Source: a virus. From it: 44,457 nt of DNA. Of the stretch, positions 1-32,934 are shown piece after piece. How positions within the stretch are numbered: the stretch's first letter is position 1; every line of letters begins with the position of its first letter. The stretch is taken from the IMG/VR virus record IMGVR_UViG_3300017922_000005, positions 1 to 44,457 of that record; one strand, given 5' to 3'. A program made the translations under genes and the position numbers. The notes below the pieces were generated by a model. It was given only the letters and a program-made list of their open reading frames with translations, was not told where the DNA came from and ran no database searches.

Positions 1-138
1 CATTTTATGCAGCATTCGTTCTTGAACACAATGTGTATCATCACGTAGATAAACTGTATCTGTATGCCATTCAATTCCCACAACTGTCCACATCCTTTTC
101 TCAATTGTATCCCATGCTCTGAATTTAAGTTCTCTCAA
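1..138 (-). CDS. YopX-family protein, 5' part only (runs off the left edge); not in ORF track
   Basis: GGGGTGATGAT-TTG start overlapping the upstream TGA; translates MRELKFRAWDTIEKRMWTVVGIEW..., matching the MREIKFRAWD N-terminal signature of YopX proteins. Confidence 0.7.
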   Translation of the reverse strand, partial: MRELKFRAWDTIEKRMWTVVGIEWHTDTVYLRDDTHCVQERMLHKM

Positions 139-527
139 ATCATCACCCCATAAGTTATATCAAACTCTTTTATATCAATGATTTCTATAAGTCCAGCATC
201 GTGAACACAATGTTGTTTTTCAATCTGCTCTCGAAATATTGATGCAGCCTCATGCATATTTGGGGCAACAATTGTCTTATCGAATTCTTCTGATATTACA
301 TTATACATCTTCAATTTGCGCCCTTTATGAGTAGCATCAGTATCTTTTGTTTTCTCATCTTTCTGCCTCTCAAGATATTTATCATACACATCATTACTCA
401 TACGACATACTTTCACATCCCAGTCCATCGACTAAACCATATACCCATACTCTTTTACAAGATTCTGGATAAAATTATGTATCTTGCTGTCAATTTCTTT
501 TGATTCATTTACTTTAATATTGCTCAT
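135..527 (-). CDS. Hypothetical protein, 130 aa, with in-frame TAG at 432-434
   Basis: GAGTGATTGA-ATG start at 527; MSNIK...YGYMV-TAG-S-MDWDVK continues in frame into the track ORF 135..428, whose ATG lacks an RBS. Confidence 0.7.
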
Positions 528-10140: not shown

Positions 10141-10365
10141 TTACTCCTGTGGTTCTTCTTCGTAGCCTATTCCTAAGAAATACTTCATCATTGCTATAGC
10201 CAAGCCCAGAAAGCTAAATAATATAACAATGAGTCCAATCACAAAGATCGGTGTAACTCCAATCCCTGCACCTATTATGCAAAGCACGACACCAAGCAAA
10301 AACATTGCCCAGCCCTGTACCCACATTATTCTGGGGTCTGTTGACCTAAAGTTCGTGTAATCCAT
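10141..10365 (-). CDS. Small two-helix membrane protein
   Basis: Two hydrophobic segments, acidic C-tail. Confidence 0.75.
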   Translation of the reverse strand: MDYTNFRSTDPRIMWVQGWAMFLLGVVLCIIGAGIGVTPIFVIGLIVILFSFLGLAIAMMKYFLGIGYEEEPQE

Positions 10366-10870: not shown

Positions 10871-11436
10871 TTATCGTCGCTACCCCTATACTTTAACTCT
10901 GCACCAAGTTCCCATAATTCCTTGATGAGGGGGTGAGCATTGGTGCGTGTGCCAGTGTACCAGAGTTGATCTCCCTGATACTCCGGTTCCTTGCCCAATG
11001 CAAGTACAGATTTCAGGAAGACAGCTTCAATACGTACCTTGTCTCCGGATTCATCAACACCTTCCCATCCAGCACCGTTCCATGCTGTGGCTCCTGTTTT
11101 CTTGATGATTCTCTTTATCTTGTTCTTGCTGTCGTGGTAGGTTCCTTCAGGGAGGAGGAAACCAATGGTAACCTCTTCCTCCCCTTCCTCCATAAGCGAT
11201 TCATACAACTGCTTTTCTTCTGCTGTCCTTTCAAACATATTCTCTTCCTCTTCTAGATTTTCCCATCTTATAGGAGCAGACAACCTGCCCCTTGCATGCC
11301 AATAATCATACTCTTCCTTTTCAAATGTCCGGTGACTCCCGCATTTCGGGCAGTGGTACTGAAGGCGTTTAACCTCAATATATATGCCTTCCCAGCCACA
11401 GCCCACACAAATCACTGGTGTCTTACTGTTCGCCAT
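10867..11436 (-). CDS. Hypothetical protein with N-terminal Zn ribbon
   Basis: CVGC...CPKCG. Confidence 0.7.
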   Translation of the reverse strand: MANSKTPVICVGCGWEGIYIEVKRLQYHCPKCGSHRTFEKEEYDYWHARGRLSAPIRWENLEEEENMFERTAEEKQLYESLMEEGEEEVTIGFLLPEGTYHDSKNKIKRIIKKTGATAWNGAGWEGVDESGDKVRIEAVFLKSVLALGKEPEYQGDQLWYTGTRTNAHPLIKELWELGAELKYRGSDDK

Positions 11437-11659
11437 CCATGTCTAGCCTCCTATTTTTATATGCTAGGACTGCCTGTTGAAGCACTTTGGAACTTTGAAC
11501 GCATACTTCTGCACCAGCAGTCATAGCATCTATGTCTTCATTCTCCAGTTCCCGTTCAATGATATTGCAAAGTTGCCTAACTCTGGTAAGGTCTGCAATA
11601 ACATTGCTTCTGCTTGCCGATACTGCCAATTCTCTCATTATCTTTTTTTGTTTGCTCAT
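11423..11659 (-). CDS. Hypothetical helical protein, 78 aa
   Basis: GGGAGA RBS with ATGA overlap gives start MSKQKK at 11659; the track start at 11812 overlaps the upstream gene. Confidence 0.65.
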   Translation of the reverse strand: MSKQKKIMRELAVSASRSNVIADLTRVRQLCNIIERELENEDIDAMTAGAEVCVQSSKVLQQAVLAYKNRRLDMDGEQ

Positions 11660-12232: not shown

Positions 12233-12535
12233 TTATAAATCATTGCGCTTTGCCACTAGTTTATAATAACTGTTGTTCCTATCAATGTATTCCTTATTAA
12301 ATGAAATACACCAACCCCTTTCTAAAAAAAGAAAGAAAAAATAAATTAGCATCTTTTTTATATTTTTTCTTTTCTTTTTTGTATTTGGTACTATTGCTAT
12401 TATCTCATTATCTCCTGTTTCTACAATACTGAAACCTTTCTTTTGTAGTTTATCTTTCAAGTCCTCTGTAGTTCTGGTTCCCAAGGACAAGGGTTTCTGG
12501 CACCCTCGTCGTTCGGGCTGAAGGTTTGGGATCAA
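12233..12535 (-). CDS. Hypothetical protein with AT-rich core
   Basis: GGAGG + 7 nt + TTG; the TTG overlaps (TTGA) the stop of the read-through upstream gene. Confidence 0.5.
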   Translation of the reverse strand: MIPNLQPERRGCQKPLSLGTRTTEDLKDKLQKKGFSIVETGDNEIIAIVPNTKKKRKNIKKMLIYFFFLFLERGWCISFNKEYIDRNNSYYKLVAKRNDL

Positions 12536-12780
12536 TCATCTGCCTCCACGATGTCCACCATAAACATTGTTATTCTACGTGCCTCTTCCAATTTGTCGGT
12601 TTCCCTCTTGAGTTCATTGACCTTCTAACCGATTGCCTTGTCTAGTTCCACGATAAATTCACGGGTGCTGTTTGTCCTCCGTGCTGTCTGTTCAATCAGC
12701 CAAGGCATGTGCTGGGATTGTGCTGTGGCTTCTCCAAGTACGGTATAGACCGATTCAAGATTAATGTTTGCTTTTGCCAT
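12532..12780 (-). CDS. Coiled-coil protein, 82 aa, with in-frame TAG at 12625-12627
   Basis: AGGTGATATC-ATG start; ...ELDKAIG-TAG-KVNELKRETDKLEEARRITMFMVDIVEADD-TGA; the TGA overlaps the next start. Confidence 0.75.
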
Positions 12781-12784
12781 GATA

Positions 12785-14296
12785 TCACCTGTTGTTGAAT
12801 GCTTCAAGTACCTCGTTCTTTGATCTTATAAACAAATTGTTCCAGTCGTTCCATTGTCTCCCCATCAAGCGCAAGACAAGTCCTTCCCTGCTGGCAAAGA
12901 GTTCATTGTGTTCGGAATACCAGCAGTGAGTATATTCATGGGCAGCCAGCATAAAAATTTCGATTCCGGTGGCTATTTTGCCCTTTGTACTCTCCACGGC
13001 ATTTGGATTGATAAGAAAAACTCTCTTGCTATCCTTCCTGAAGACTTTAGCGTTGCATTCTTTGTCAAAAGTAAATCCAACACCGATTTCTACGTTCTGG
13101 TTGAATTCTTCTTCTATCTTGAGGATTATGTTTGTCCAGTAGTGTAGGATGGTTTGAAGCTTCTTGGAATCTATCTTCATCGGATAGTTCTTGGTGTCTT
13201 CCCTTCTTTCCACCATGAACTCGTATCCCATTGGTCCAATTTCATGCTTGCTTCCTTCCAGCATGTCACTAACCAGCTGTCCAAGTTCCGGAAAGGTGTC
13301 GGATACTTGTTCTTCCACGGCTTTATAGTTAGTTATTCCGCTTGTGGTGTTCTGTGCTGTGATAGCTTCAATAAAGTCCTTCTTATGGTCTGTTACCTCC
13401 GGATGATGAAACTCATTCAGTTTGTCCATCACATTCAGTCCAGCAAAGGTGTCAATTACCATCTGCGGTTTCTTCTCCGTGGCTGATCTGGGATCAACGA
13501 TCATCTCGTTTATCTTTTCATCCAGTTTAGACCTGAATGGATAGACAAGATTATCCCTGTTGGCAGCAAGGAAATTGACGGACTCGCCCTTGAGTTCCAC
13601 ATAAACCGTGGACTCCAAGTTCGGCATCATTCTCCAAAACATAGGAATGCCACGGAGTCTCACGACCATTTTGCTACTCTCAAAGTCCTTGTCCACTATG
13701 AAATCCGCAAGTTCACTGCTCTTCAGAGTACCTTTGACCTTCTCGCATTTGACCTCTTCTCCATCAAGGCAAATTGTTGCCTCTGTGGAAAGGAAAGATA
13801 AAAAGTGTTCAACTTTGTATTTCCAGAAGCCAGCATCATAAATAGAGCCTTCTTCGTACAAATTGATTGATATCTCGGTGCCAATTTTGCATTCAGTCTC
13901 AATGCACCTAATTGGTTCCTTGCCAATCATTTCGTTGTTTATCTCATACAACGTCGTTCCGTCTTGAGAAGATTTAATCGACCATTGACTCCATGCAAAG
14001 AAAAGGATTTCCTTTGCCTTGCCGAATCCGCCAACGGAACCTTCCTTCTTCTGGGAACCACCAAGCACAAGTAACTTGTCACGAATAATGTTTGCGTTCA
14101 TTCCGCAGCCATCATCCACGACAGTTATCGTGTTGGCTTCCTTATCAATATCAATGCTTACCTAACTGGCTCCAGCATCCAGACTGTTCTGAATCGCTTC
14201 ACGAATCCATACCGTTGGTAGATCGTTTGAATAATCTGCTCTGGCATTTTTGCGGAAATAATCAGCACCTATAACAATATCTGCTACTTCTTCCAT
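12785..14296 (-). CDS. GHKL (HATPase_c) ATPase fused to a C-terminal zincin-like HExxH domain, 503 aa, with in-frame TAG at 14162-14164
   Basis: AGGAGG RBS; REAIQNSLDAGAS-TAG-VSIDI...TVVDDGCGM, GGFGKAK, GTEISI Bergerat motifs; HEYTH...HNELF at C-terminus. Confidence 0.85.
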
Positions 14297-14315
14297 TATA
14301 AACCTCCTTTAAATC

Positions 14316-14338
14316 CCAAAAGAAGACATCTCTTTTGG
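14316..14338. terminator. 8-bp hairpin CCAAAAGA/TCTTTTGG just upstream of the GHKL gene RBS
   Basis: Perfect inverted repeat seen directly; function inferred. Confidence 0.35.
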
Positions 14339-14434
14339 TCTGCTTGTCGCATCCTTATGCTGTGTCCAGTCCATGCTCTCGATGTCAAGGGAGTCGCTCT
14401 CTTTGGCTCCCTTGGCTATCTCCGGCTGGCTGTC

Positions 14435-15112
14435 TTACTCTTCTGGTGGATAGTCGTATTCGAACCTATCCATGGATTCCGCAACTGCTTCGTCAAATTT
14501 ATCGTTGTTGGCATTCTTGCGGAGTTTGGGGAAGGCTACAGTAATTATCGCTGTTTTGACTTTGCCAAAGTCTTCTCCAAATTTGGACTCTCCCATGAAG
14601 ACTGGTGCGATTCCCTTGATAAAGATGTCTTCAAGGTAGTTGGTCACCTGTTCCAGTTTGTCTTCTGGAAATTCTGCTTCCTCAAGGTATTCCCTGACCT
14701 CCGTGTCAAGGTCTGCGAAAGAATCCTTGTCCTCGGATTCTTCCGGTTCTTCTGTCTTGGGTTCCCTTTTCAGTTCTTTGGTTTCCTTCTCTGCCTTAAC
14801 TGCCGTGGTCTGTGTTTCCACCCTTGCCACCGTAGGCTCACTGAAAGGAGTTGGGAACACATCGTGGAGTTTGACTGGCTCTCCATTTTCATCAAGATAA
14901 TGCTTCTCCTCTGATCTGATATGTCTGCGAATGTTCTGTGTGGAGCACCCGAAATGCTTGGCAATGAGTCTGTAACCCCATGCCTTGGGTTCTTCCATCT
15001 TGTTCTCTTTTCTGTCGTAATAGTTGAGTTCATGCCTGCCAACATAAAGGTCAACTACTTCCTTGTGGTTGATACCGATATGTCCAGATTTTGTGGTCTG
15101 CTCGTTTGTCAT
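14435..15112 (-). CDS. HTH-containing protein with acidic linker
   Basis: YRLIAKHFGCSTQNIRRHIR HTH; GGAGG RBS. Confidence 0.75.
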   Translation of the reverse strand: MTNEQTTKSGHIGINHKEVVDLYVGRHELNYYDRKENKMEEPKAWGYRLIAKHFGCSTQNIRRHIRSEEKHYLDENGEPVKLHDVFPTPFSEPTVARVETQTTAVKAEKETKELKREPKTEEPEESEDKDSFADLDTEVREYLEEAEFPEDKLEQVTNYLEDIFIKGIAPVFMGESKFGEDFGKVKTAIITVAFPKLRKNANNDKFDEAVAESMDRFEYDYPPEE

Positions 15113-15343: not shown

Positions 15344-15405
15344 CGTTTATCTGTCCTGACTGATACCAGTCAGGATTCCAGTAAACGGAGGGAGGAATCT
15401 CCCTC
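15344..15405. terminator. Pair of intergenic hairpins (9 bp TCCTGACTG/CAGTCAGGA; 7 bp GAGGGAG/CTCCCTC)
   Basis: Perfect stems at 15354-15375 and 15388-15405; outer CGTTTA/TAAACG helix. Confidence 0.5.
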
Positions 15406-15592
15406 ACAAATACGATATCGGAATCGTTGAACCGCATCCATAAACATTCTTACTTGCTAACTAATCCTCCATGCATTCCTTACATGAATCGCAATCAACT
15501 CCGATATGCCCTTCAGGTGCCCCACAATCCTTACAAGCGTAGCACTTCCGCACTGCATAACATTGCAATTTATAAGGGCAAGGTTTATGCAA
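15404..15592 (-). CDS. Cys-rich microprotein (43 aa to TAG at 15461-15463, 62 aa if read through); not in ORF track
   Basis: GGAGTGA + TTG start; MHKPCPYKLQCYAVRKCYACKDCGAPEGHIGVDCDSCKECMED-TAG-LASKNVYGCGSTIPISYL. Confidence 0.55.
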
Positions 15593-15722
15593 CCGAATCA
15601 CTCCTTAACTTTCTTAAGATTGCTGGGAGATCATCCCCATCGGGGAGCTCACGATTGAAGACTTCATCCTCTACGTCATGATCAACTTTCTTGCGCCTGT
15701 GTGGAGACAATCCTTGCCTCAT
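15585..15722 (-). CDS. Small hypothetical protein, 45 aa; not in ORF track
   Basis: ATGA overlap with upstream stop; MRQGLSPHRRKKVDHDVEDEVFNRELPDGDDLPAILRKLRSDSVA. Confidence 0.55.
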   Translation of the reverse strand: MRQGLSPHRRKKVDHDVEDEVFNRELPDGDDLPAILRKLRSDSVA

Positions 15723-16449: not shown

Positions 16450-16643
16450 TATGCATCCTCCATTATAATCTCGACTACGGTTTCACCAACATCGCCTGCT
16501 GGATCATCCTCATCACGGGTGAACACACGAATTTGTTTCACGCCTGCAAGGGAATCCTTGTTCAGGTTAAATTCATCATGCTTGTCGCTGAAAGTCACGT
16601 GCTTGGTGACTTGCCTAACTGTAAATTGACGTTTCTCTCCGAT
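16449..16643 (-). CDS. Small protein, 64 aa, apparent ATC start; not in ORF track
   Basis: AGGAG-CGTGAAACT-ATC; (I)GEKRQFTVRQVTKHVTFSDKHDEF...VVEIIMEDA-TAA overlapping the next ATG. Confidence 0.55.
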   Translation of the reverse strand: MGEKRQFTVRQVTKHVTFSDKHDEFNLNKDSLAGVKQIRVFTRDEDDPAGDVGETVVEIIMEDA

Positions 16644-16690
16644 AGTTTCACGCTCCTGTTGTTAATTTCACGGTTGCTTCATGCTTCACT

Positions 16691-16822
16691 TCACGCCTGC
16701 GATTTCACGCAATCGTGAAGGACGTCCGAATGCGCAACCACACGCATCCGGATTCCGTCCCATGAATCCTTGTCCTCGTGAATGAATGGGGTCAGATCAA
16801 ACTGCCCCACCATTCGACTCAT
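16691..16822 (-). CDS. Small protein, 43 aa, inside the hairpin array; not in ORF track
   Basis: MSRMVGQFDLTPFIHEDKDSWDGIRMRVVAHSDVLHDCVKSQA; starts 6 nt after the upstream stop; weak RBS. Confidence 0.45.
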   Translation of the reverse strand: MSRMVGQFDLTPFIHEDKDSWDGIRMRVVAHSDVLHDCVKSQA

Positions 16823-17032
16823 TCTGAGTCAAATGAATTCATCCCTGTGGGATGAATACCAATCGTCCCGACGATATTCTGACCTCACGTGACCAGAATC
16901 CATGACGAATCCCATGGCACCATTCTTCTGAATGAACGTGCGCACAATTCTGCTATTGTCGCTGCAATGCTTGGCTGCTGGTTTCATGGCTGAACCTCCC
17001 AGTTCAGCCAGTTTGAATTCACAAATTCAAAC
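16704..17032. other. Array of about 15 abutting hairpins and palindromes
   Basis: Stems at 16704-19, 16728-49, 16750-69, 16784-815, 16816-30, 16837-57, 16862-75, 16876-99, 16900-17, 16921-34, 16952-70, 16987-17010, 17011-32; palindromes GGACGTCC and GTGCGCAC. Confidence 0.75.
16829..16987 (-). CDS. Small protein, 52 aa, inside the hairpin array; not in ORF track
   Basis: GGAGG + 7 nt + ATG; MKPAAKHCSDNSRIVRTFIQKNGAMGFVMDSGHVRSEYRRDDWYSSHRDEFI. Confidence 0.55.
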   Translation of the reverse strand: MKPAAKHCSDNSRIVRTFIQKNGAMGFVMDSGHVRSEYRRDDWYSSHRDEFI

Positions 17033-17279: not shown

Positions 17280-17618
17280 TCATTGCCCAACCTGTGACTC
17301 TAATTCAGCAATGCGCTGCTTGAGCAATTCCTCCTTGGATGGCTCGTGCATTGCGTCATCAATGACATCCTTGAGCTGCATTGCTACCAATTCACCCACG
17401 AATTCCTCTGGGGTTGGTTGCAATTGCGCTGCTGACTTGACTGACTTGGATCGCTTGAGGTCACGTGGCGCTGGTTCCTTGATTCCCAACCTCACCAACC
17501 AGCGTCGTGCATTCTCTCTGCTGCATTCCAATTCCTTGGCAACTCCAGTCACGGATTGCCTCACGTCCCATGCGTCACGAACCGATTGCTCGTCAATTCC
17601 TTTGTGGTTGCTGCTCAT
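17280..17618 (-). CDS. HTH DNA-binding protein, first gene of the leftward arm
   Basis: SVTGVAKELECSRENARRWLVRLGI HTH; C-terminal short coiled coil; no Tyr. Confidence 0.75.
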   Translation of the reverse strand: MSSNHKGIDEQSVRDAWDVRQSVTGVAKELECSRENARRWLVRLGIKEPAPRDLKRSKSVKSAAQLQPTPEEFVGELVAMQLKDVIDDAMHEPSKEELLKQRIAELESQVGQ

Positions 17619-17661
17619 ACTTGATCACGTCCTGCCATGGATGGGAGCGGGTTGCGCTGAT

Positions 17662-17685
17662 CCGGAACCGAACCGGAACCGAACC
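17662..17685 (+). repeat. Tandem 11-bp repeat (CCGGAACCGAA x2.2)
   Basis: Seen directly in the GC-rich segment upstream of the first leftward gene. Confidence 0.85.
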
Positions 17686-17859
17686 AGCATGCCGCCCCAT
17701 CCCTCGGCAATCAACCCGATGAGGTGGGCGCTCGTGCTGTGATCGCTATCGGGCGCCATCGGCAATGGTTTGCTGGTGCTATGCGATGGCGGCAGAGGTC
17801 GGTGGCGGGGTTGAATCGGCATCGGAATCCGATGTCCGGTGGGGTTTGCTAGAGGAAAT

Positions 17860-21806: not shown

Positions 21807-22370
21807 ATGACTGACGATAAAATTTCTGATGTTACAGATGCTATAAAGGCTCCTAATTGTAGGGTATGTAACCATCCCAGAAGGTCAGATATTGACCAGA
21901 TGCTTATCCTGGGTGTCAGATATAAGGACATAATCAAAAATCTGGGAGCTGAAGGCAGCGAACTGAATACCAAAATTCTGTCCAATCACAAGAACAAACA
22001 TATAAATGTAGATCAGGTTCCGGATGTAATACCAAGTACCGTACAGGCTGGACTGGTGGATGCCCATCAAAGGGCGTTTGAATTACAATTTGAAAACCAA
22101 CGTCTGCGTTCCGAAAATATGCTTGCTGACCAGAAAATGAGAATGACACAGCAGGCTGCAGTTTGTTTAACTATTATAGACCAGTTGCCACAGGTACTTG
22201 AAACAGCAACAGTAAAAGATGTTCTGAATGCGACCAAAATGCTCTCCGAGATATGTGGGGATAGAGTGGAAAAGCACGAACATCAGATTGATGTAGTTGC
22301 TGACATGAACATGGATGAAGATACTCTCAAAGCAATTGGAGATATTTTAGCCAGTGGCAAGAAGAAGTGA
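21807..22370 (+). CDS. terS: Terminase small subunit (putative)
   Basis: CRVCNHPRRSDIDQMLILG HTH-like N-terminus; immediately upstream of TerL. Confidence 0.7.
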   Translation: MTDDKISDVTDAIKAPNCRVCNHPRRSDIDQMLILGVRYKDIIKNLGAEGSELNTKILSNHKNKHINVDQVPDVIPSTVQAGLVDAHQRAFELQFENQRLRSENMLADQKMRMTQQAAVCLTIIDQLPQVLETATVKDVLNATKMLSEICGDRVEKHEHQIDVVADMNMDEDTLKAIGDILASGKKK

Positions 22371-23908
22371 GGCACATCATGGAAATGAATGATGCCACCG
22401 AAATACTCCTGAAGACCAGTGAAGGTAGAAGAGCCCTTGCCAAAAATTCTATTTCTTTTTTCTTGAGTTATTATCTGGGATTGGATATTGATAAGCATCA
22501 TGAAGAATGGATATCCAGAATATACATTAAGAGATTGCATTACGAAGCCCCCCGTGACCATGGAAAATCTACAATCTTTTCTTTTGGATATCCATTGTGG
22601 TTACTTTATCATGTACCAAATGTAAGAACACTGGTCGTATCCCGTACAGGAGGTTCTTCCGGTGTTTCTACAAAGGTTAGGGAAGCCATAATTGAGGAGA
22701 TGAAGACCAATAATCGCCTTCTAGAAGATTATGGTAAGATAATTACCAAAGAGAAGGGAGGAAATATATGGGTTAAACGTACCAAACGAGGTATAAAAGA
22801 CCCCTCACTAGAGTCTGTGGGTGTGGGTGGTTCAATTACTGGTGGTCACTACGATTTTATTCTGGTGGATGACTTGATTGATCCCAGCAACTCCCGAACC
22901 CAGACCATGAGGGATTACGTAGCTGACTGGTTTAATGGTACCCTGATGGAACTTCTGGAACCGGATTCCCAGATCATTGTGGTTGGTACCCGTAAACACT
23001 GGGATGATTTATATAAATATATACTGGACAACAAATTGTGGAACAGTTATATAGATAAAGCCATAATCAGATATCCAGATCATTATGAAATTATTGCGCC
23101 CGATGAAGAAACATATGAAGATATGACATTTGAGGAAGCCGACAGGCGTGGCGGAGAACTCAAGATCATTAATGATGTCAAGGTATATGTTGAAGGAGAC
23201 TATGAAGTCCTCTGGAAAGAAAAATGGGATATATTCCAGTTATTGTATAATAAATACGATATTGGCTCCATTCTTTTTAACAGGGAAAAACAAAATGATC
23301 CATCCGGCATGCAAGGTAAGATTCTGAATGTAGAATGGTTACAATTTTATGAAAAGAAAGACTTGCCCAATGATTTAATTGTTTATCAGGGAGTGGACTT
23401 GGCAATCTCTGAAAAGGAAACTTCCGATTATATGTCAATCTGTACGGTAGGATACTCCCCATCAAAACAGATCGTCTATGTTCTGGAGTTCTGGAGAGGA
23501 CATCGCACATTCCCTGAACAAATCGGGATGATTGAACGATTTGGTAATAAATGGGACCCCATACGGATAACTATCGAATCTAACGCATACCAGAATGCAA
23601 TGATACAGTACCACCACGCTGTCAATATGTTACCCGTTGTGGGTTCCCCAACTACAAAGGATAAAACAACAAGGATGCTTGCCATTTCTCCACAGATCGA
23701 GAATGGTAAAATTCTATTTAACAGAGATATTCCTTATTATGAAAATTTTGAAGAGGAATTTGTACAATTCCCATATGGAGCGCATGATGATACTTTGGAC
23801 AGTCTGGAAATTTGTGTAAGACCTATTTTTCAGGTTGGTCAGATACATATTGGTGATTGGTCAACTGGTAAGGATGTTGCAGGAGAAAAAGGATGGTTTT
23901 CAATATAA
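22367..23908 (+). CDS. terL: Terminase large subunit
   Basis: Walker A PRDHGKST, Walker B ILVDD, GTR motif, nuclease GVDLA and HDDTLDS. Confidence 0.95.
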   Translation: MRHIMEMNDATEILLKTSEGRRALAKNSISFFLSYYLGLDIDKHHEEWISRIYIKRLHYEAPRDHGKSTIFSFGYPLWLLYHVPNVRTLVVSRTGGSSGVSTKVREAIIEEMKTNNRLLEDYGKIITKEKGGNIWVKRTKRGIKDPSLESVGVGGSITGGHYDFILVDDLIDPSNSRTQTMRDYVADWFNGTLMELLEPDSQIIVVGTRKHWDDLYKYILDNKLWNSYIDKAIIRYPDHYEIIAPDEETYEDMTFEEADRRGGELKIINDVKVYVEGDYEVLWKEKWDIFQLLYNKYDIGSILFNREKQNDPSGMQGKILNVEWLQFYEKKDLPNDLIVYQGVDLAISEKETSDYMSICTVGYSPSKQIVYVLEFWRGHRTFPEQIGMIERFGNKWDPIRITIESNAYQNAMIQYHHAVNMLPVVGSPTTKDKTTRMLAISPQIENGKILFNRDIPYYENFEEEFVQFPYGAHDDTLDSLEICVRPIFQVGQIHIGDWSTGKDVAGEKGWFSI

Positions 23909-26157
23909 ATGGTTTAGTAGAGAGATTACGGGATTTCAATCCCAATCGTGTCAAGCACTTGGAAAATCAATTGGCTAAGACAAGTAACGAATTGGACAAG
24001 ACCATGCAAATGGTAGAAAAGCCACAGCATAATGTATATAGCAGGGAGATCGGTATCCAGCACATGAATCTGCCTTTGCGGATTCGTGATATATATAATG
24101 TGGCTGCCTTCAATTCAGTATTACGTACAGCTATTCATAATATAAAGAGTGAAATTTTCAGACAACCCCCAGTGTGGAAGGCAAGGTTTGTCAGAAAGTG
24201 TAGTGAATGCGGACACGAACACATGAAAAGTGTTGATAAGTGTGAGGCGTGTGGAAGTACATCCCTGCAAGAACCGGATATCAATCAGACCGCCCGATTT
24301 GAGGAATTTGTACAGAATGCAAACAAGAACGGACAGACTTTGAAGGAAGTCCTAAAAGAATGTGAACGTGATCTTGAAATTATCGACGATGCCTATGTCG
24401 TGCTTGTCAAGAGTTATGCTGTTGGTAAAGATGGCATCATGTATGAAAGAGTCAACGAGATCATCCGAGGCAACCCAGAAAGGATACGTATCGTGTCCAA
24501 CGACAGGGGCGAGATCGGTGGTAAATGGTGGGTGTGCCCCTTACACCGTGAACCCAAATTTGAAACTGAAAAAGACCCCATGAAGCGTAAACATGGTAAA
24601 GTTTATGAAAATCCTGGGCATTGTGAAATCTGTGGAAGAAAACTTTACGAAGTACATCATGTATCAATAATGGGTACCGATGCTTCCGCAGCAGCCGAAC
24701 AATACTTTATTGAAGGCGAGATTATTCATGGTTCCAAATACAGTCCATCCCTGCTTTATGGTTACAGTCCGGTAGTTTCCCTCTGGAAGGAAGCTTCCAC
24801 CCTGCTGAACATGGCAAATTACATTAACGAGTATTATAAATTCCAGCGTACTCCCAAAGGTGCCATCTTCATCAATACCATGAATCCGGAATCCATGTAC
24901 AAGAAATGGGATGAAATCAATGAAAGAATGAGAGTTGATCCCCACTACATACCCATGATTGCTACGCAGGGAGATTCCAATTCCAAGAACAGGGCGGATT
25001 TTGTAAAATTCTCCGATACCCTGCAGGAAATGGGATATTCAGAAGGCAAGGATGAACTTCGACAGAGGATTTCTGCATTCTACGGTGTTACCAATATACT
25101 TATGAATGATGCTACGTCATCGGGAGGCAGTAATAATGAAGGACTTCAGATCAAAGTGACTGATCGTGCGGTAGAAACTGGACAAAATGTCTGGAACGAG
25201 AAATTCTTCCCGAAACTCATGAAAGCATTCTCCATAACGGACTGGAATCTTGTACTTCAACCCAACGAAGAAACTGACCAGATGAAACGTATTCAACTGG
25301 AAACTTCCAAAGCCCAGCACGCACAACTCATGCAACAGATGGGATTCAAGGTAACACTGGATGCGCAGGGTGAATTTGAATATAGTGGAGAAGCCATGGA
25401 CTTATCTGCACAACAGGAAGAAATGATGGGAGAAGACGAAATGGGTGAAGGTGATCCTGAATATGATGATGGGATGGTGAATCCGGATGAAGAACCGGAT
25501 GACCTTTTCATGGATGCCGATGATGAAGCCGAAGGTGGACAATATAGAGAACTCTTCTTCGATGCCGAGGAGGATGGTAGAAAAAATAAGAGTGACTCCT
25601 CACCTATAACTATTGATGGGGAGTTAACAAAGACAGTACCATGGAGAAGGAGTGCCGCCAACGGTTATAGAAAGATCGAGATTACCAGACGAGATGGAGA
25701 AAGACAGGCAGTCTGGGTAAAGATGCATTCTGATAGGGAACTTGGTCAAAAACGTGATGGAGAATCCATGGATACCCATGAACTGTTTGGTGAAGACAGA
25801 GATAGATGGAATATCCAGCGCAGACCATCTGAAGAAATTAAGAGGGATAACTACTCTACCAGATGGGAGCAGGAAGAAGGCGTCAAGAATAAGGAGACTC
25901 CACTACCACCGGAGAAAGCTAAATTGAGGACAACATTCCAAGAAGCTCATAATGATGTGGTCGTCAATATAATAGGTAGGGATGCCGACCAGATGAAAGA
26001 AACCGCGGAAGATGATCCTTTGCAGGGACACATGGCAGCCTTCAATCCGGACACCAAAGAGTTGAATATTGATAGTAACATTACAACCAGCCAGATGAAG
26101 CAGGTTTTCGAGAAGTATCATGATATGTTGAGGAAGCAAGATGAAGAATCTAAATGA
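23893..26157 (+). CDS. Portal protein with two Zn-ribbon-like insertions and a long acidic C-terminal extension
   Basis: Position after TerL; GYSPV, DELRQRISAFYGV portal-like motifs; CSEC..CEAC and CPLH..HCEIC inserts. Confidence 0.85.
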   Translation: MVFNINGLVERLRDFNPNRVKHLENQLAKTSNELDKTMQMVEKPQHNVYSREIGIQHMNLPLRIRDIYNVAAFNSVLRTAIHNIKSEIFRQPPVWKARFVRKCSECGHEHMKSVDKCEACGSTSLQEPDINQTARFEEFVQNANKNGQTLKEVLKECERDLEIIDDAYVVLVKSYAVGKDGIMYERVNEIIRGNPERIRIVSNDRGEIGGKWWVCPLHREPKFETEKDPMKRKHGKVYENPGHCEICGRKLYEVHHVSIMGTDASAAAEQYFIEGEIIHGSKYSPSLLYGYSPVVSLWKEASTLLNMANYINEYYKFQRTPKGAIFINTMNPESMYKKWDEINERMRVDPHYIPMIATQGDSNSKNRADFVKFSDTLQEMGYSEGKDELRQRISAFYGVTNILMNDATSSGGSNNEGLQIKVTDRAVETGQNVWNEKFFPKLMKAFSITDWNLVLQPNEETDQMKRIQLETSKAQHAQLMQQMGFKVTLDAQGEFEYSGEAMDLSAQQEEMMGEDEMGEGDPEYDDGMVNPDEEPDDLFMDADDEAEGGQYRELFFDAEEDGRKNKSDSSPITIDGELTKTVPWRRSAANGYRKIEITRRDGERQAVWVKMHSDRELGQKRDGESMDTHELFGEDRDRWNIQRRPSEEIKRDNYSTRWEQEEGVKNKETPLPPEKAKLRTTFQEAHNDVVVNIIGRDADQMKETAEDDPLQGHMAAFNPDTKELNIDSNITTSQMKQVFEKYHDMLRKQDEESK

Positions 26158-28807
26158 TATGAAACGAAATGTGAAGGCGTGGGAGCGTGAGCACAAACCC
26201 TCCAAAAACCCTTCTCCTCATGAATCACCAAAAGAGGAACCCGCAAAGGATGCACCTATCAATCAACGGGAACAGGCTAACCAAAAGGTGGAAGAGAATA
26301 AAAAGAATATTGAAGCCAGAAGAAAGATTGGTGCCAATAAACGTAAATATAATGAATTACGTAGGAAAGTAAATTACAAAGAACAGAAAGAGAATATTGA
26401 AGCTGGTAAGACTCCCGTAGGAAACAAAGAAGAGTACAAAAAACCTACCAAGGGGCATGATCTGGTAGAGGCTGCGAAGCCTCGACATAAATTGGCAAAT
26501 TACAGGCAACCTGCATGGAACAAAGGTATAAAGAGGGAGATGGTTCCGGAAGGCAAGTATATAAAACATCAAATAGATGCTCAAGGTAGAAGAAATGTAA
26601 ATTTTGCCAATACGCCTCTTCCTAATGATGCCAAGGATGCCGACGGAGCCAAACGTGCCCGACGTGTGAACGATGATATTCAGGAACAACAGGCAGAACG
26701 TGCTCATATGGATAGGGGCATGCGTGGAATGGGTGAACAAGCCAAGCGTCGGTTGAATCCGGACATCAAAGACCTTATCGTGCAGGGTAAGAAAGAACTT
26801 GATGAATTAACGGACAAAAATCTGGAAGATGATGATGGGCGTGCCATGAAAGAATGGGCAGAAGATATGAAAGAGATTCTGCTCAAATTCGGTCATGATG
26901 AACTTGCCGAACAGGTACCAGACCCCGAAGATACCGAAGCCATGCAAAAATTTGTGAAACTTGCTTATAAAAGGGCAGGTTTTCACTATCCCACACCTAT
27001 TCCGGACTTGGAAGTTGGAGAAATTACCAGAAGCGATGGTGTTACTCAAAGAGTTTACCATATTCCCAAATCTCCGAAAAAGGACAAATTAAAAATTAGA
27101 CCTGGATTTGTGCAGGAAGACAGGGAACGCCCTCATGGACACGAAGGTAGGGATGATAATGTAACACAAAGAATCTGGAAGAAGGATGAAGATTTCAAAA
27201 TTAAGAATGTAATAAATCAGGGAGACTGGAAATTTGATCCTGATCAGCAGATTACAAAAGTCACCAAGACAAAAGGAAATCAGGGGTTTGAATTTGGTGG
27301 AGTGAATCCTTCTGCATTAGTTACATATGAAGATGGTTCCCGTGCCTTCTTTAAATCCGAACAAGAACATGAACATTTTGCCATTGATCCTCAACAGAGA
27401 ATGAGAAATGAATATGGTGTATCCAAATTCTTCCACCAGAACTTCTCTGATAAATTTTCTTTTAATATTCCAAGGTCTAATATCATTTCTTTAAACAAAA
27501 TAGATAATGAAGAACTTATAGATATACTTGGAGTAGAAGAGGGAGAAGTTTTAAGGAATGAATTTATAAATGGATATCCCATAGATATTATCCATGATAA
27601 AGAATTCATTGATAAAGTGGATGAAAAAGGATTAATTGAATCTGTAATCTTCAATTATGCTATAGGTAATAGTGATTACCATGGTGGAAATGCCTTAATA
27701 GATGAAGAAGGCAAAGTGAATGTTATAGATACTGCTTCATCAATACTTTCAATCCTTGATCCGGAAGAAGAAGATATTGAATTTAATCTATCTGATAATA
27801 CTCTCCTGTGGAATTATCTAGATAATGTATATGATGGAGAGATAGAAGTAGATGATGAAACGGTGCGGGGTTTTCTGGATGAAGAAGACATACAGGAATA
27901 CATTAAAGATTCTATAAATACTCTTCTGGAAATGGAACCGGAAGAATTTGCAAGAAACCTTTTACAAAACACCGAACTTTCTGATGAGGAATATGAAAAG
28001 AAAGCCGGAATTATAAAAGAAAATCTTGGTGTTTTAAAAAATTTTGTTCTGGAAGAAGATGAGGAAGAACAAGAAAAATGGAACGAATGGTGGCAGACTG
28101 TAAGGGAAGATAGACTTGCTGAATATAAAGAACAACAAGCCAAAAAAGATGCAATAAAAGAAGAGAAAGAAGGCAAATTCAGTGATGATGAAGATTTGCA
28201 AGCCATTCTGGAAAGGGTAGCTGCTGGTGAATCTGCAGAAGAGGCAATGGAAAGTCCGGAGGAACCCGCAAATAAAGAACCCGAACACAATATTGCAATG
28301 CCCAAGCCAGTAAAAACCAGCGAATACACCATGCAAGACCTCTTCAAAGAAAATCAAGCAAGAAGAGCCGAAGGTCTGGAACCTCTAAATTCAATTGAAG
28401 AACTTGCAGCAAGCAAACTCCCTAAACCTACGGAAGAAGCAGTGATTTCCGAGGACGAGGAGAAGGGTTTCCAAGAGTGGGCAGAACAGAACGAGCCACC
28501 AAAGGTTAAATTGGGTGCTATTCCGGAAGAAGAATTCCAAAAATTGATTGATAAGGGTATTCTTGCACCGAAACCCGAAGATGAAAATGAAGAATCTTCT
28601 TCAAATTTCCAAGAAGAGCCCACGGAAGAGCCAAAAAAAGAGTCCGACCAAAGCGTCGTAGAAGCTTTTGAAAACGCAAAGCGGACGACAAAAGAAGCTC
28701 CCAGACCTATCTCTGACAAAGGCAAGCGCTCTGCAAACACCCTCTTCATGGAAGATGCAGATGATGAACCGCACAAGATACAGGGCTGGAAGCCCAATAC
28801 TAAATAA
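26141..28807 (+). CDS. Large head-region protein with a HipA/PI3-4-kinase-like domain and charged low-complexity flanks
   Basis: GGVN loop, AFFK, RNE, GNSDYHGGN catalytic loop, NVIDT. Confidence 0.75.
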   Translation: MKNLNDMKRNVKAWEREHKPSKNPSPHESPKEEPAKDAPINQREQANQKVEENKKNIEARRKIGANKRKYNELRRKVNYKEQKENIEAGKTPVGNKEEYKKPTKGHDLVEAAKPRHKLANYRQPAWNKGIKREMVPEGKYIKHQIDAQGRRNVNFANTPLPNDAKDADGAKRARRVNDDIQEQQAERAHMDRGMRGMGEQAKRRLNPDIKDLIVQGKKELDELTDKNLEDDDGRAMKEWAEDMKEILLKFGHDELAEQVPDPEDTEAMQKFVKLAYKRAGFHYPTPIPDLEVGEITRSDGVTQRVYHIPKSPKKDKLKIRPGFVQEDRERPHGHEGRDDNVTQRIWKKDEDFKIKNVINQGDWKFDPDQQITKVTKTKGNQGFEFGGVNPSALVTYEDGSRAFFKSEQEHEHFAIDPQQRMRNEYGVSKFFHQNFSDKFSFNIPRSNIISLNKIDNEELIDILGVEEGEVLRNEFINGYPIDIIHDKEFIDKVDEKGLIESVIFNYAIGNSDYHGGNALIDEEGKVNVIDTASSILSILDPEEEDIEFNLSDNTLLWNYLDNVYDGEIEVDDETVRGFLDEEDIQEYIKDSINTLLEMEPEEFARNLLQNTELSDEEYEKKAGIIKENLGVLKNFVLEEDEEEQEKWNEWWQTVREDRLAEYKEQQAKKDAIKEEKEGKFSDDEDLQAILERVAAGESAEEAMESPEEPANKEPEHNIAMPKPVKTSEYTMQDLFKENQARRAEGLEPLNSIEELAASKLPKPTEEAVISEDEEKGFQEWAEQNEPPKVKLGAIPEEEFQKLIDKGILAPKPEDENEESSSNFQEEPTEEPKKESDQSVVEAFENAKRTTKEAPRPISDKGKRSANTLFMEDADDEPHKIQGWKPNTK

Positions 28808-28835
28808 TCCTTATCCTTATAAATGAGGCAATAAA

Positions 28836-29084
28836 ATGGGTAGAATAGCAGTAATTTCAATGGTAGGAAATTCAGGTGAATACGAGGATGTTGCTATAAT
28901 TGCACAAGATGATTATGGTGAATTCTCTGTTCACGGAAGAGATAAAGTTATAAAGAAGAGTCTCGAAAGAGATGTTAAGAAAGGAATCAACTTCAAAGGG
29001 CACACATGGAATAAGGACAACCTTATTGATGGGGTGCTCGTCAAATATAACAGACCACCACAAATACAAGTAAGAGAGGATTAA
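28836..29084 (+). CDS. Hypothetical protein
   Basis: GAGG RBS; 82 aa. Confidence 0.7.
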   Translation: MGRIAVISMVGNSGEYEDVAIIAQDDYGEFSVHGRDKVIKKSLERDVKKGINFKGHTWNKDNLIDGVLVKYNRPPQIQVRED

Positions 29085-29086
29085 AA

Positions 29087-29335
29087 ATGCAACTATGTAC
29101 AGACGCAGGCATGAGAAGTAATGGAAAACCATTTACCGGACCGGATTATACACAAGCCCCGATAGCACCTCTTCCGATTCAAAACCCATCAAGGGAAGGA
29201 AAGGAAGACCCCAATGCTGGCAGGGAGACCGGAAATGTAATTGGTGGAAATGATCGCAATCTCGGTGTACGTACCCAGAAGCCCAACATGAACAGAATGA
29301 TTGTGGGTACTTTGGGTATTGAACGTATAGATTAA
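29087..29335 (+). CDS. Hypothetical low-complexity protein
   Basis: GAGG RBS; 82 aa. Confidence 0.6.
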   Translation: MQLCTDAGMRSNGKPFTGPDYTQAPIAPLPIQNPSREGKEDPNAGRETGNVIGGNDRNLGVRTQKPNMNRMIVGTLGIERID

Positions 29336-29352
29336 TTCACAAGGACAAGGAT

Positions 29353-29898
29353 ATGAGCTGGCAGGACGTAGAGCTCAAGTACATCTTGGAAATTGACGAG
29401 AAATATATCGATGCATTTCCAAAAAAGATGAAGGAAGCCATAAAGATAGGTATTCGTGAAATTGCCAGATTTATCAGGGATCAGTGGAGAGAGAACGTCC
29501 ATAATTTCGGACTGGAAGTGAGTGGTACAGCATATCACTCTATCCGGTTCAGAAAGATAAACGATTTCAAATATAAAATCTTTTCCGATGGCACGGCTCC
29601 ATATCTTAAATACCACGAATGGGGTGCTGGTGTCAGTCATGAACCAGACCCCCATGATCCTTTCTTTCCACCACCGGATAAAATCAGGCAATGGATTGAG
29701 GCTAAAGGTGTTTATGCATATGATGCCAATGGCAGACTTATAAATTCCAAACGTCTTGCCTTCTTAATTAGTAGAAGCATATTTAAGCGAGGATTATATC
29801 CAAAACCATGTTTCAGACCTGCAGTGGCTTCAGGCGAGCGGGTTTTCCGACAATATATTAATGATGCAATAGCTGAATATTACGGGTTGAAAAAATGA
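29353..29898 (+). CDS. HK97 gp10-like / virion morphogenesis protein
   Basis: PFFPPPDKIRQW..KG...LAFLISRSIFKRGLYPKPCFRPA pattern. Confidence 0.7.
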   Translation: MSWQDVELKYILEIDEKYIDAFPKKMKEAIKIGIREIARFIRDQWRENVHNFGLEVSGTAYHSIRFRKINDFKYKIFSDGTAPYLKYHEWGAGVSHEPDPHDPFFPPPDKIRQWIEAKGVYAYDANGRLINSKRLAFLISRSIFKRGLYPKPCFRPAVASGERVFRQYINDAIAEYYGLKK

Positions 29899-30218
29899 GC
29901 GTAGAACAACATACGGTAGGACAGAAAAAGACTTATTTCAAAAGACAAAAGGGTTGTCTGGGTGAGCGTGGGCTTGGTACCTGCAATGATTGTATAAAAA
30001 ACTTTCCAGAAATGGCTCTGGGTTGCAAAAATATGGGAGATTTCCTTCCTAAGAAGGACTGGAACCGTATTTTTAAGAACAGTCCACTGTATAACAAGGA
30101 TGTCAAACCCCGTCACGAATTATCCGAAGAATGGTATGAAGATAAACCCATGGGATATAATCGTGCTGGTAAAAAAGTAAACCGTTTTGGACTTCCAATA
30201 GGGAGGAACGGTATTTAA
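29895..30218 (+). CDS. Hypothetical protein (C..C..C...C cluster)
   Basis: ATGA overlap; 107 aa. Confidence 0.65.
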   Translation: MSVEQHTVGQKKTYFKRQKGCLGERGLGTCNDCIKNFPEMALGCKNMGDFLPKKDWNRIFKNSPLYNKDVKPRHELSEEWYEDKPMGYNRAGKKVNRFGLPIGRNGI

Positions 30219-30283
30219 ATCTTTTCTTTTTTCAATGTTAAATTCTGATAGCTGTGATTTGTAAATGTTCATATAATTATTAA

Positions 30284-31786
30284 ATGCTCAATGTCGATGA
30301 AAATACTAGAACTGTTAGTGGCTATGGTACCGTAGAGATTGTCGATAATCAGGGCGACTACGTACCCATCGATGTTGTTTTGCGCTTAATGGATACCTAC
30401 ATGAACAGGGGCGGTGTGCTTGTCGATACACATACCAACCGCCATGTAGGTAAAATTCTCCATTGGGAACCCAAAGAAAAAGATGGGAAAAATGCTGTCT
30501 GGTTACAGGCTCAAATCTTTGATGATTATTCAATCGATGATATGATTTGGGATGCTATAAAGGAAGGGCATTATACTGGATTTTCATTTGGGGGCAGGGG
30601 TTTGGACAAGCACGTAGTATGCAATGCAGAACAGGGCTGTTTCAACCATATAGACGACATGGAAATTTGGGAATGGTCAATAGTTCCCAAGCCTGCTAAC
30701 AAAGAATCGACTATAGACGAATTCAATAAATTAGCAAAAGGTGATAAGTTGACAGATGCCATGATGCCAGTGTTGAACTCAAAAGGAAATATCGAATATA
30801 TGGAAGTAGAACTTTTACAGAAAGCCGAAAAGGAAAGTCCTGAAGAAGAAAAAGCATACCTTGAAGAGGATGTTGATCTCGCAGAAGGTGAAGAAGCTGA
30901 TTGTCCATTGAAAGAGAAAGAAAAGGCAATGGGTAATCGTGAAATGAATCCTGATTCGGACAGACCTCTTCAATATTATCGAGATGCCAAGCATTCTGAA
31001 AGGGTAAAACCCGATAGAAGGAACAGGCGTAAATTGAGTTCAACAGAAATAAAAGACGCACGCAATGTAGCCGAAGCTGCTAATGATCCCAAGCAGAATA
31101 TTGGAAAGGACGACATTCCGGAATATATGATGCATGATGGACATGGTGAATCTAGTAAGGCAACTAAACGTGCAATTCGTTACGCTAATAAAGGAGAACA
31201 AAATATGACTGAAAATGAAGTAGAAATCCTTGTTCCAATGGAGAAATCTGATGGAACTACATCATGGGAACCTATGATAATAGGAGAGGATGCACTTGAA
31301 AAAGCAGGAGATGAAGTACCAGTGACACCCCCAGCAGAAGAATCCGATTCCCCAATGAATCAGATACTCAAGAAACTTGAAGGTATTGAGAGCAGGATAA
31401 CCAAGCTCGAAGGTACCTCCGGACAGCCAGAGATCGAATCTGGAGAGACAGAAAAAGCCGAAACCCCAAAGAAGGTAACGCTTCCAGAAGCCGAACAGAC
31501 AAACGATACTACCCACGCAACTGACGATCATCAGATTCAGCAGGGCAAATCCAAGACCATGAACAAATCAGAAGAGCTTGCTTCCGTTGTTCAGAATGAA
31601 CTGCAGAAAGCTGGATATACAGAAACACCCAGACCTGCAGCACAGTCAGACCAGCCATTCATGGACAATGATGCATCAACCATAAAGGATGTCCTTATGA
31701 AATCCGATGAAGGTGGTTTCGACATGCACAAGGCACTTGCCAACAAATCATTTGATGATCTCAACACCCTCTTTGGAGGAGAATAA
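30284..31786 (+). CDS. Prohead protease (HK97/XkdF-like) fused to a scaffold-like C-terminal region
   Basis: VDNQGD, DTHTNRHVGK (His), YTGFSFGG (Ser), EWSIVPKPAN; directly upstream of the capsid gene. Confidence 0.9.
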   Translation: MLNVDENTRTVSGYGTVEIVDNQGDYVPIDVVLRLMDTYMNRGGVLVDTHTNRHVGKILHWEPKEKDGKNAVWLQAQIFDDYSIDDMIWDAIKEGHYTGFSFGGRGLDKHVVCNAEQGCFNHIDDMEIWEWSIVPKPANKESTIDEFNKLAKGDKLTDAMMPVLNSKGNIEYMEVELLQKAEKESPEEEKAYLEEDVDLAEGEEADCPLKEKEKAMGNREMNPDSDRPLQYYRDAKHSERVKPDRRNRRKLSSTEIKDARNVAEAANDPKQNIGKDDIPEYMMHDGHGESSKATKRAIRYANKGEQNMTENEVEILVPMEKSDGTTSWEPMIIGEDALEKAGDEVPVTPPAEESDSPMNQILKKLEGIESRITKLEGTSGQPEIESGETEKAETPKKVTLPEAEQTNDTTHATDDHQIQQGKSKTMNKSEELASVVQNELQKAGYTETPRPAAQSDQPFMDNDASTIKDVLMKSDEGGFDMHKALANKSFDDLNTLFGGE

Positions 31787-31788
31787 AC

Positions 31789-32934
31789 ATGACGTACAGA
31801 AACTCAATACAGACAATTGGAGACCTTGAATCCCTCTACTATGGAGACCTCTTCTCCAAGCAGTACATGCAGAAAAGCGATGCGCCAATGCTTACTTCCA
31901 CCTCTGGTATTTACAACCAGATTTATGGTGCAAAGGTTTGGGTAAACCTGAATCTTGAAGCCAATGCATTTGGTATGTTGAACAAGACTCCTTGGAAACA
32001 GTCCGGTTGGAGGCTTATCACAACCCGTGCTCTCGGAACTTCTGGAAGCGGTGGAGTTGCTGAAAATGCTGCACTTCCAGATACCACAAAACCCACCTTC
32101 AAAGAGGTCGCTACCAAACCCAAGACCGTTGCACACACCTTCGACAGTTCCGAAGTCATGCAGTACATGGGTACAGTGGACGATTCCCTTGGAGATGTTA
32201 TGGGAGTTCTGCGTGAACACATGGCAAAGGAACATGCAGAACAGATCAACAAGATGCTCCTGAAAGATGCTTCTGCTGAAGCCGCAGCAGCCAGTGGAGA
32301 CCGTGCTGCAGCCGACATGTACAATATCGAATCCCTTGACCGTATAGTGTCCAGTGATGCAGAAGAAGACGCATTTGGTGGAACCTATAATGGTTGGTTC
32401 GATGTATTCAGCCTTGATAGGGATTCCACAACTGACTACGATGCACAGGTCAGCCACAACTCTGGTACAGACCGTTCCTTGTCCTTGTCCCTCATTGATA
32501 GTATGTTCACCAACCTGTGGACTGCTGGTGGAAATCCAAAGGTCATTATGACCGGATATGACTCCCTCATGGCAACCCAGCAACTCTTGCAGGCACAGCA
32601 GAGATTCATGGACACCAAGAGAGTAACACCTTCCGTAAACGGTATTAAAGGTGTAGATGGTGTGGATGCAGGATTCGTTGTTGCAACATACAATGGTGTT
32701 CCATTCATACCATCCAAAGACATGTGTCAGGATACCCTTTCAAGGATGTTCTTCCTCGATACCGACTATCTGGAAATGAGAATTGCAAAACCAACCCAGT
32801 ATTTCGAGTCCGGTATCCTTTCTGGAAACCCCTTCGGAATTAACCGTCTTGGTCAGGAAGGACTTTACCGTACAATGGGTGAAGCAACCTGCCAGTGGTT
32901 TGGCGTACAGGGTAAGATCAGGGATTTGCAGTAA
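31789..32934 (+). CDS. Major capsid protein (HK97 fold)
   Basis: Position; IYGAKVWVNLNLEANAFGMLNKTPWKQSGWR resembles, from recall, magrovirus/HGTV-1-like capsids. Confidence 0.9.
   Translation: MTYRNSIQTIGDLESLYYGDLFSKQYMQKSDAPMLTSTSGIYNQIYGAKVWVNLNLEANAFGMLNKTPWKQSGWRLITTRALGTSGSGGVAENAALPDTTKPTFKEVATKPKTVAHTFDSSEVMQYMGTVDDSLGDVMGVLREHMAKEHAEQINKMLLKDASAEAAAASGDRAAADMYNIESLDRIVSSDAEEDAFGGTYNGWFDVFSLDRDSTTDYDAQVSHNSGTDRSLSLSLIDSMFTNLWTAGGNPKVIMTGYDSLMATQQLLQAQQRFMDTKRVTPSVNGIKGVDGVDAGFVVATYNGVPFIPSKDMCQDTLSRMFFLDTDYLEMRIAKPTQYFESGILSGNPFGINRLGQEGLYRTMGEATCQWFGVQGKIRDLQ

Follow-up and report, generated by a model that had tools for sequence, protein, structure and literature searches.

The 44,457 nucleotides of viral DNA analyzed here (the window; IMG/VR record IMGVR_UViG_3300017922_000005) carry a TAG triplet inside what looks like the ATP-binding fold of a GHKL ATPase, and the question raised by this locus is whether the gene is broken at the triplet or is translated through it and, if so, with which residue. 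A table-11 ORF list splits the gene into an ORF of 44 aa and one of 444 aa, the latter starting at GTG 14119 and reading MDDGCGM. A first, sequence-only reading of this DNA had given MDDGCGM as the start of the listed ORF and had proposed that an AGGAGG and an ATG at 14296 open a longer frame, MEEVADIV..., that is interrupted by an in-frame TAG; every detail of this description was correct. By direct reading of the minus strand, the AGGAGG Shine-Dalgarno sequence occupies 14308-14303, 6 nt 5' of ATG 14296-14294 (the sequence ahead of the ATG is AAAGGAGG). From this ATG the frame reads MEEVADIV...REAIQNSLDAGAS, meets the TAG as codon 45 (14164-14162, minus strand), resumes with VSIDIDKEANTITVVDDGCGM and runs on for 458 codons with no break until TGA 12787-12785, giving a read-through product of 503 residues. 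The features of the gene, with the basis of each assignment in brackets, are listed below.

14303..14308, minus strand: Shine-Dalgarno sequence AGGAGG (direct reading)
14165..14296, minus strand: codons 1-44, GHKL N-terminal helix region with motif I (homolog alignment, HATPase_c_3 match, MutL profile alignment)
14200-14177, minus strand: motif I residues E33, N37 and D40 (nearly invariant columns)
14162..14164, minus strand: in-frame TAG, codon 45, predicted first residue of beta-strand 1 (reading, relatives, model)
12788..14161, minus strand: codons 46-503, predicted remainder of the GHKL domain, transducer-like middle domain and C-terminal helical domain (invariant columns, Foldseek)
14116-14099, minus strand: motif II, DDGCGM (invariant columns)
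within 12788..14161, minus strand: GGFGKAKE loop and G139-T140 (invariant columns)
12908..12940, minus strand: HExxH and a third His (H453, E454, H457, H463), a zincin-like putative metal site (invariant in 27 of 27 aligned members)
12785..12787, minus strand: TGA stop of the full gene (reading)
14054..14141, minus strand: imperfect mRNA hairpin of 88 nt, beginning 20 nt past the TAG (folding against shuffles)

Motif I (E33, N37 and D40) lies before the TAG and motif II (DDGCGM) after it, in agreement with the claim that two motifs needed by GHKL ATPases flank the codon. The candidate internal starts, GTG 14119 and ATG 14101, have no Shine-Dalgarno sequence, and ATG 14296 alone has one. Since the Bergerat motifs are on opposite sides of the TAG and the sole Shine-Dalgarno sequence precedes ATG 14296, a working ATPase can be made from this locus only if the TAG is translated, which supports the proposal that a functional enzyme needs read-through.

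Sequence comparison indicates that the two ORFs flanking the TAG are one gene. The Pfam model HATPase_c_3 matched the 503-aa product at residues 31-117 (E 9.5e-10; 39.1 bits versus a cut-off of 25), so that the HMM check suggested for this product yielded a match running straight across the TAG. A search of 5.8 billion proteins (threshold E <= 0.001) returned 201 relatives; among the 120 matches listed, most are 470-540 aa long and cover 92-100% of the read-through product, and the closest relatives among the matches listed are 40-45% identical over 99-100% of its length. The first 44 residues (MEEVADIV...WIREAIQNSLDAGAS) align closely with, for example, P0007 to P0010. In a family alignment of 27 members, the nearly invariant columns include F14, Y22, R32, E33, Q36, N37 and D40 upstream of the TAG and G63 just past it, where M66 is invariant, and in the lid and GT motif G89, F91, G92, K93 and T140 are invariant and G139 nearly so. 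A failure of the 44 upstream codons to align with motif I had been named beforehand as a potential refutation of read-through, and the alignment came out in its favor. Kivenson et al. (bioRxiv 10.1101/2024.09.30.615893) place a gene in their Category 1 of internal-TAG genes when homology extends across the TAG and read-through adds more than 15 residues; here homologs span the codon, with metagenome proteins rather than UniProt as the comparison set, and read-through extends the 44-residue ORF by 459 residues, which by these criteria makes the locus, at the level of sequence, a Category 1 internal-TAG gene.

The position taken by the TAG is not a conserved one. Among the 27 aligned members, column 45 is variously H, R, E, K, N, L, Q or S (Q in one relative), and an additional 29 viral loci have R, T, N, K, E or another residue there, bearing out the expectation that the TAG column would be variable. 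When the family profile was aligned to E. coli MutL, motif I corresponded to ENSLDAGAT and the TAG column to the Arg that opens strand 1 in GATRIDIDI. In an AlphaFold (AF2) model with a mean pLDDT of 83, residue 45 likewise opens a strand (E45-51) within a block of pLDDT ~96.

We compared the window with IMGVR_UViG_3300006807_000001 (hereafter G001), a complete genome of 56,499 bp with 123-bp terminal repeats that is about 98.5% identical to the window. The same TAG codon is present in the window, in G001 and in a third assembly, Ga0208153_100051, and a slip in assembly is ruled out by its presence in the two other assemblies. The gene has 20 differences between the window and G001, 15 of them synonymous and five non-synonymous (dN/dS 0.084; P 2e-7 versus the neutral expectation), and codons 46-503 taken separately have a dN/dS of 0.06. 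The first 44 codons contribute three synonymous and two conservative non-synonymous changes, too few to weigh alone because the divergence between the window and G001 is low, at ~1.3%. No frameshift or other stop was found in the gene in this comparison. The gene is under strong purifying selection; pseudogene lesions or relaxed selection, also named in advance as a refutation of read-through, were not seen. A metagenome scan for diverged close relatives yielded one near-identical contig and otherwise generic GHKL heads.

These results bear on the possibility that the gene is broken or dispensable, with a fixed nonsense mutation leaving a 44-residue peptide or a protein of 438-444 aa that begins at an internal start and lacks motif I. 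The lengths given by table-11 gene callers can be read in this way: the cluster of proteins at 90% identity has 25 members from several sources, and the 15 of these that were listed comprise ten of 444 aa, one of 438 aa, four shorter ones and none of full length. A second lineage of this family, P0019 and three relatives, which is 31% identical, was likewise called at 385-445 aa. Nevertheless, we regard a broken gene as highly unlikely, given a dN/dS of 0.08 after the TAG arose, upstream codons that match the homologs at every conserved column, and a full Shine-Dalgarno sequence at ATG 14296 with none at the internal starts. In addition, neither the Mg-binding Asn nor the catalytic Glu would be present in the shortened protein, and the near-absence of TAG stops throughout the genome, described below, would need a separate explanation.

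The second lineage merits mention in its own right. All four of its proteins (P0019 and P0138-P0140) were called in the short form, P0019 from just after DDGCGM, and judging from these calls the P0019 lineage may have an independent N-terminal in-frame stop. No relatives of P0019 were found in the viral and metagenome scans.

The read-through product has the defining features of the GHKL superfamily, namely motif I (ExxxNxxD), motif II (DxGxG; D62-G63-C64-G65-M66), a lid and GT motif, and a predicted Bergerat fold. The top Foldseek matches of the AF2 model were TRAP1/Hsp90 and MORC3/4 (probability 1.00), and the sequence profile of the family points to the heads of MutL, PMS2, Hsp90, MORC and GyrB. 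At the C-terminus, the HExxH and the further His are invariant in all 27 aligned members; the WLM and YgjP-like models matched six and four of these 27, respectively, at E <= 0.01, although weakly (best 3e-4), and neither matched the 503-aa protein itself. From sequence and model, the product appears to join a GHKL ATPase head of the Hsp90/MORC/MutL type to a transducer-like middle part and an HExxH tail resembling WLM/SprT. It shares with the ATPases of this type motifs I and II, the glycine-rich lid, the GT motif and the predicted fold, but differs from them in the fused C-terminal HExxH..H domain and in belonging to a phage-borne family. A plausible function, judging by the domains alone, would be an ATP-driven clamp coupled to a zinc peptidase. 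In contig scans this GHKL-zincin family was found at 44 loci in viral contigs and also in bacterial MAGs, and it had no match in 50,697 deposited phage records. The Atlas clusters for the downstream ORF are all labeled "hypothetical protein" with no characterized member, and no neighboring gene was common to more than five of 31 GHKL-zincin loci.

TAG is rare as a terminator throughout the virus. In a greedy ORF map of the window, 39 of the 74 ORFs end in TGA, 33 in TAA and two in TAG, and the 90 ORFs of G001 end in 51 TGA, 37 TAA and two TAG. Of off-frame stop triplets, 17.3% are TAG, giving a probability of 1e-4 for two or fewer among 74. The virus avoids TAG as a stop, and TAG is depleted as a terminator. 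The two window ORFs that do end in TAG are small and remain open in frame beyond it. No tRNA gene was found in the window or in G001, and no match to PylS was found in the virus record. About four in-frame TAG candidates occur in the window, all in its leftward early arm and none in ~25 kb of late genes; the four read-throughs together add ~143 codons, or ~1% of the window. The GHKL gene is the sole candidate of the four with independent homolog support. These data suggest that the virus uses TAG as a sense codon, a conclusion that leans heavily on the GHKL gene and on the stop-usage statistics.

The other three candidates are as follows. A 131-aa product at 135-527 (minus strand) requires read-through of TAG 434-432. 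Its relatives in the database, four in number and including P0145 (94 aa, 78% identity), were all called from just past the TAG, so that the codon seems to be kept in P0145, a more distant relative; no outside homolog spanning TAG 434-432 was found. The gene next downstream of the GHKL gene (12532-12780, minus strand; MAKANINLES..., 82 aa) has an in-frame TAG at 12627-12625. Its read-through adds 30 coiled-coil-like residues and ends at TGA 12534-12532, abutting TTG 12535 of the next ORF, and fills an otherwise empty gap of 89 nt; no outside homologs of this gene were found. The 131-aa and 82-aa genes were rejected as independent Category 1 cases for want of supporting outside homologs. The third is a candidate Cys-rich ORF of 46 codons at 15344-15601 (minus strand), to which read-through of TAG 15463-15461 adds 18 codons. 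TAGs at 10216 and 10348, upstream of the DUF932 gene, were also considered and rejected, as the stretch has a non-coding look and is covered by another ORF. Finally, the complete genome G001 (L063) has just one other ORF ending in TAG, at 11147-11446 (plus strand), a hydrophobic, low-complexity ORF of 99 aa that would gain 11 codons if read through and that lies within 11 kb absent from the window.

What kind of virus this is can be read from its head genes. The capsid matched nine and the portal 11 of the 50,697 phage records, and these matches are exclusively tailed viruses of Haloarcula, Methanomassiliicoccales or Methanofastidiosa. The relatives of the head module (22367-32934) include phage records KC292029, KC117377, BK063666 and BK063680, viruses of Haloarcula or of methanogens from metagenomes, and the terminase has only a distant likeness to bacterial phage terminases. 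By these relationships the virus is an archaeal tailed virus, and its GHKL gene is located in a leftward early/replication arm together with PolB, AAA_24 and DUF932.

Recoding of TAG to Gln is well established in bacteriophages. Phages with recoded stops read TAG as Gln or TGA as Trp, deviate from the code of their host, often carry suppressor tRNAs and have many such codons in late genes. A reassignment of this kind, in which a suppressor tRNA reads TAG as Gln or another standard residue and pyrrolysine (Pyl) plays no part, could be invoked here because one base change turns CAG into TAG and one relative has Q at column 45. We consider it extremely unlikely, in view of the absence of a tRNA gene from the complete genome, the ~4 in-frame TAGs with none in ~25 kb of late genes (recoded phages having many, mostly late), and head genes of the archaeal-virus type, no archaeal reassignment of TAG besides Pyl having been described. 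The many, chiefly late in-frame TAGs that characterize code 15-type phages, and the suppressor tRNA that often goes with them, were not found. In common with stop-recoded bacteriophages, the virus has a gene that is unreadable under the standard table, but it differs from the code 15 type in that it would keep the code of its host, has no tRNA, and contains in the window ~4 TAGs, all in the early arm.

Several lines of evidence bear on the host. The source metagenome of G001 (3300006807) comes from produced fluids of hydraulically fractured shale (PMC5497025). Shale communities are narrowed to a small set of halotolerant members, and Halanaerobium and Methanohalophilus occur together in every shale sampled (PMC6048472). 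Methanohalophilus in shale fluids grows on trimethylamine through MttB (PMC6048472), and its genomes have ~42% G+C and a tRNA-Pyl (PMC6491703); the G+C content of the virus is 40-41%. Methanohalophilus is also one of the eight genera rich in internal-TAG genes, and in Methanococcoides burtonii, which is related to it, Pyl was the only residue that proteomics detected at TAG (Kivenson et al., bioRxiv 10.1101/2024.09.30.615893). Taken together, the archaeal head genes, the shale habitat, the G+C content, the tRNA-Pyl and the membership in an internal-TAG genus make a Pyl-decoding methanogen, probably Methanohalophilus (a halophilic relative of Methanosarcina), the likely host. Counting against this reading, the GHKL-zincin family is otherwise known from bacterial phages and bacterial MAGs. 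The published Methanohalophilus CRISPR repeat (PMC6491703) had no matches in the viral contigs. Metaproteomes with viral peptides, 326 in number, exist for the fractured-shale ecosystem (PMC6048472).

We consider it likely that the host, a Pyl-decoding archaeon and probably Methanohalophilus, reads TAG 45 as pyrrolysine at a position that tolerates it, and pyrrolysine is the residue that we infer to be most likely inserted. The gene of this archaeal tailed virus would then encode a single early protein of 503 residues: host tRNA-Pyl and PylRS would decode UAG 45 as Pyl, and translation would continue to TGA 12787-12785. The virus, supplying no tRNA of its own, would depend on the Pyl system of the host, and would be adapted to a host in which UAG is sense, ending almost all of its own genes in TGA or TAA. 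Within the protein, Pyl would occupy the first, outward-facing position of beta-strand 1, directly past the motif I helix. Because H, R, E, K, N or Q stands at this column in relatives, Pyl 45 is most likely a tolerated, near-neutral residue rather than a functional one.

A further question is whether the codon is always read. The 88-nt hairpin that follows it (14054..14141) has an MFE of -40 kcal/mol in 120 nt and a z of -4.9, was matched by none of 200 shuffles and is among the ~8 most structured loci of the window, but measured within the gene it reaches a z of only -1.8. The TAG at 15463-15461 is directly followed by three tight hairpins (-46.6 kcal/mol, z -5.5), and no downstream structure was found at the other two TAGs (z -0.85 and +1.37). 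Several TAG-free homologs fold about as strongly at the same place, and among relatives one base differs in the hairpin region (in G001), with no covariation. A PYLIS-like hairpin was rejected as evidence, since the structure, strong as it is versus shuffles, is absent at two TAGs and is matched by TAG-free homologs; we treat the 88-nt hairpin as unexplained and not as a PYLIS. The most structured stretches of the transcribed strand lie elsewhere, at 17581-17800 and 16641-16920 (minus strand), with minima of -58 and -53 kcal/mol per 120 nt, respectively.

A conditional gate of the kind proposed in the first reading, in which UAG 45 is decoded partly, or only when Pyl is plentiful, so that the dose of the ATPase follows methylamine metabolism, with the hairpin tuning decoding efficiency in a role once proposed for the PYLIS, would draw on the strong hairpin after the TAG, on the similar trailing hairpins at TAG 15463-15461 and on the location of all four window candidates in the leftward early arm. 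Control by Pyl supply found no other support in this analysis. The gate appears improbable, because two TAGs have no structure and TAG-free homologs fold about equally, and because the PYLIS itself reportedly makes no difference to Pyl insertion in E. coli and could not be detected in some of the known Pyl methyltransferase genes. Moreover, code-34 archaea have no reported termination products or other residues at TAG, and in the likely host group TAG is reported as Pyl genome-wide (bioRxiv 10.1101/2024.09.30.615893). The likely host, an obligate methylotroph, lives on trimethylamine in its habitat and would have its Pyl machinery in use anyway (PMC6048472). Somewhat less probable still is that the TAG and hairpin form a Pyl-dependent switch or attenuator that sets the dose of an early GHKL-protease according to the tRNA-Pyl and Pyl status of the host, or that Pyl is chemically active near the ATP site; if such a switch or chemical role were true, no virus before this one would have been shown to put the 22nd amino acid to functional use.

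Translation of the TAG as Pyl at a tolerant position has clear precedent in cells. Internal-TAG Category 1 genes, and a proposed Genetic Code 34, have been described in Pyl-decoding archaea (Kivenson et al., bioRxiv 10.1101/2024.09.30.615893), and earlier cases include the tRNA-His guanylyltransferase of Methanosarcina and 16 non-methyltransferase proteins of Ca. M. alvus (PMC4153887). The locus shares with Category 1 genes a single in-frame TAG in a non-methyltransferase gene, with homologous flanks and a variable position, and the virus shares with their genomes a scant use of TAG as a stop and the lack of any known required downstream element. It differs in that the gene is viral, in a virus without Pyl machinery that would depend on its host. 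The code-34 preprint makes no mention of viruses (bioRxiv 10.1101/2024.09.30.615893), and the only virus-like entry in the earlier work is a prophage-like helicase in a cellular genome (PMC4153887). For smacoviruses, avoidance of TAG stops has been used as a host signal for Methanomassiliicoccales (PMC6336856). Their low amber-stop usage mirrors a Pyl-decoding host much as it may do here (4.25% in smacoviruses, <=2.7% in this virus), but in smacoviruses there is stop avoidance alone (PMC6336856), whereas here a TAG also lies inside a conserved gene and needs translation. Pyl at an internal UAG in cellular genes of some methanogens and low amber-stop use in smacoviruses are already known, and in the literature we found no paper describing an in-frame TAG that is decoded as Pyl in a viral gene.

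A 2026 survey that screened 3,708 archaeal virus genomes by coding density found none with a non-standard code, a gain in coding density of >10% (5% above 100 kb) being the criterion (PMC13465236). Such a test would miss this virus, because reading TAG as sense adds just ~1% of coding sequence. If the reading of TAG as Pyl is true, viruses of code-34 archaea would be routinely mis-annotated, as with the 503-aa enzyme that is split here into 44 aa and 444 aa in every database copy, and TAG usage could help to predict the hosts of tailed archaeal viruses. Viruses of this kind would also be restricted to UAG-decoding hosts, with consequences for the range of hosts open to them and for gene exchange between methanogens and other archaea.

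Despite the 20 differences in the gene itself, the 145 nt upstream of the GHKL start (14297-14441) are 100% identical in the window, G001 and Ga0208153. Within this region, the TAA of the upstream gene (14437-14435) is followed by 41 open codons in the same frame, which extend to a TAA at 14311-14309, just ahead of the ribosome binding site.
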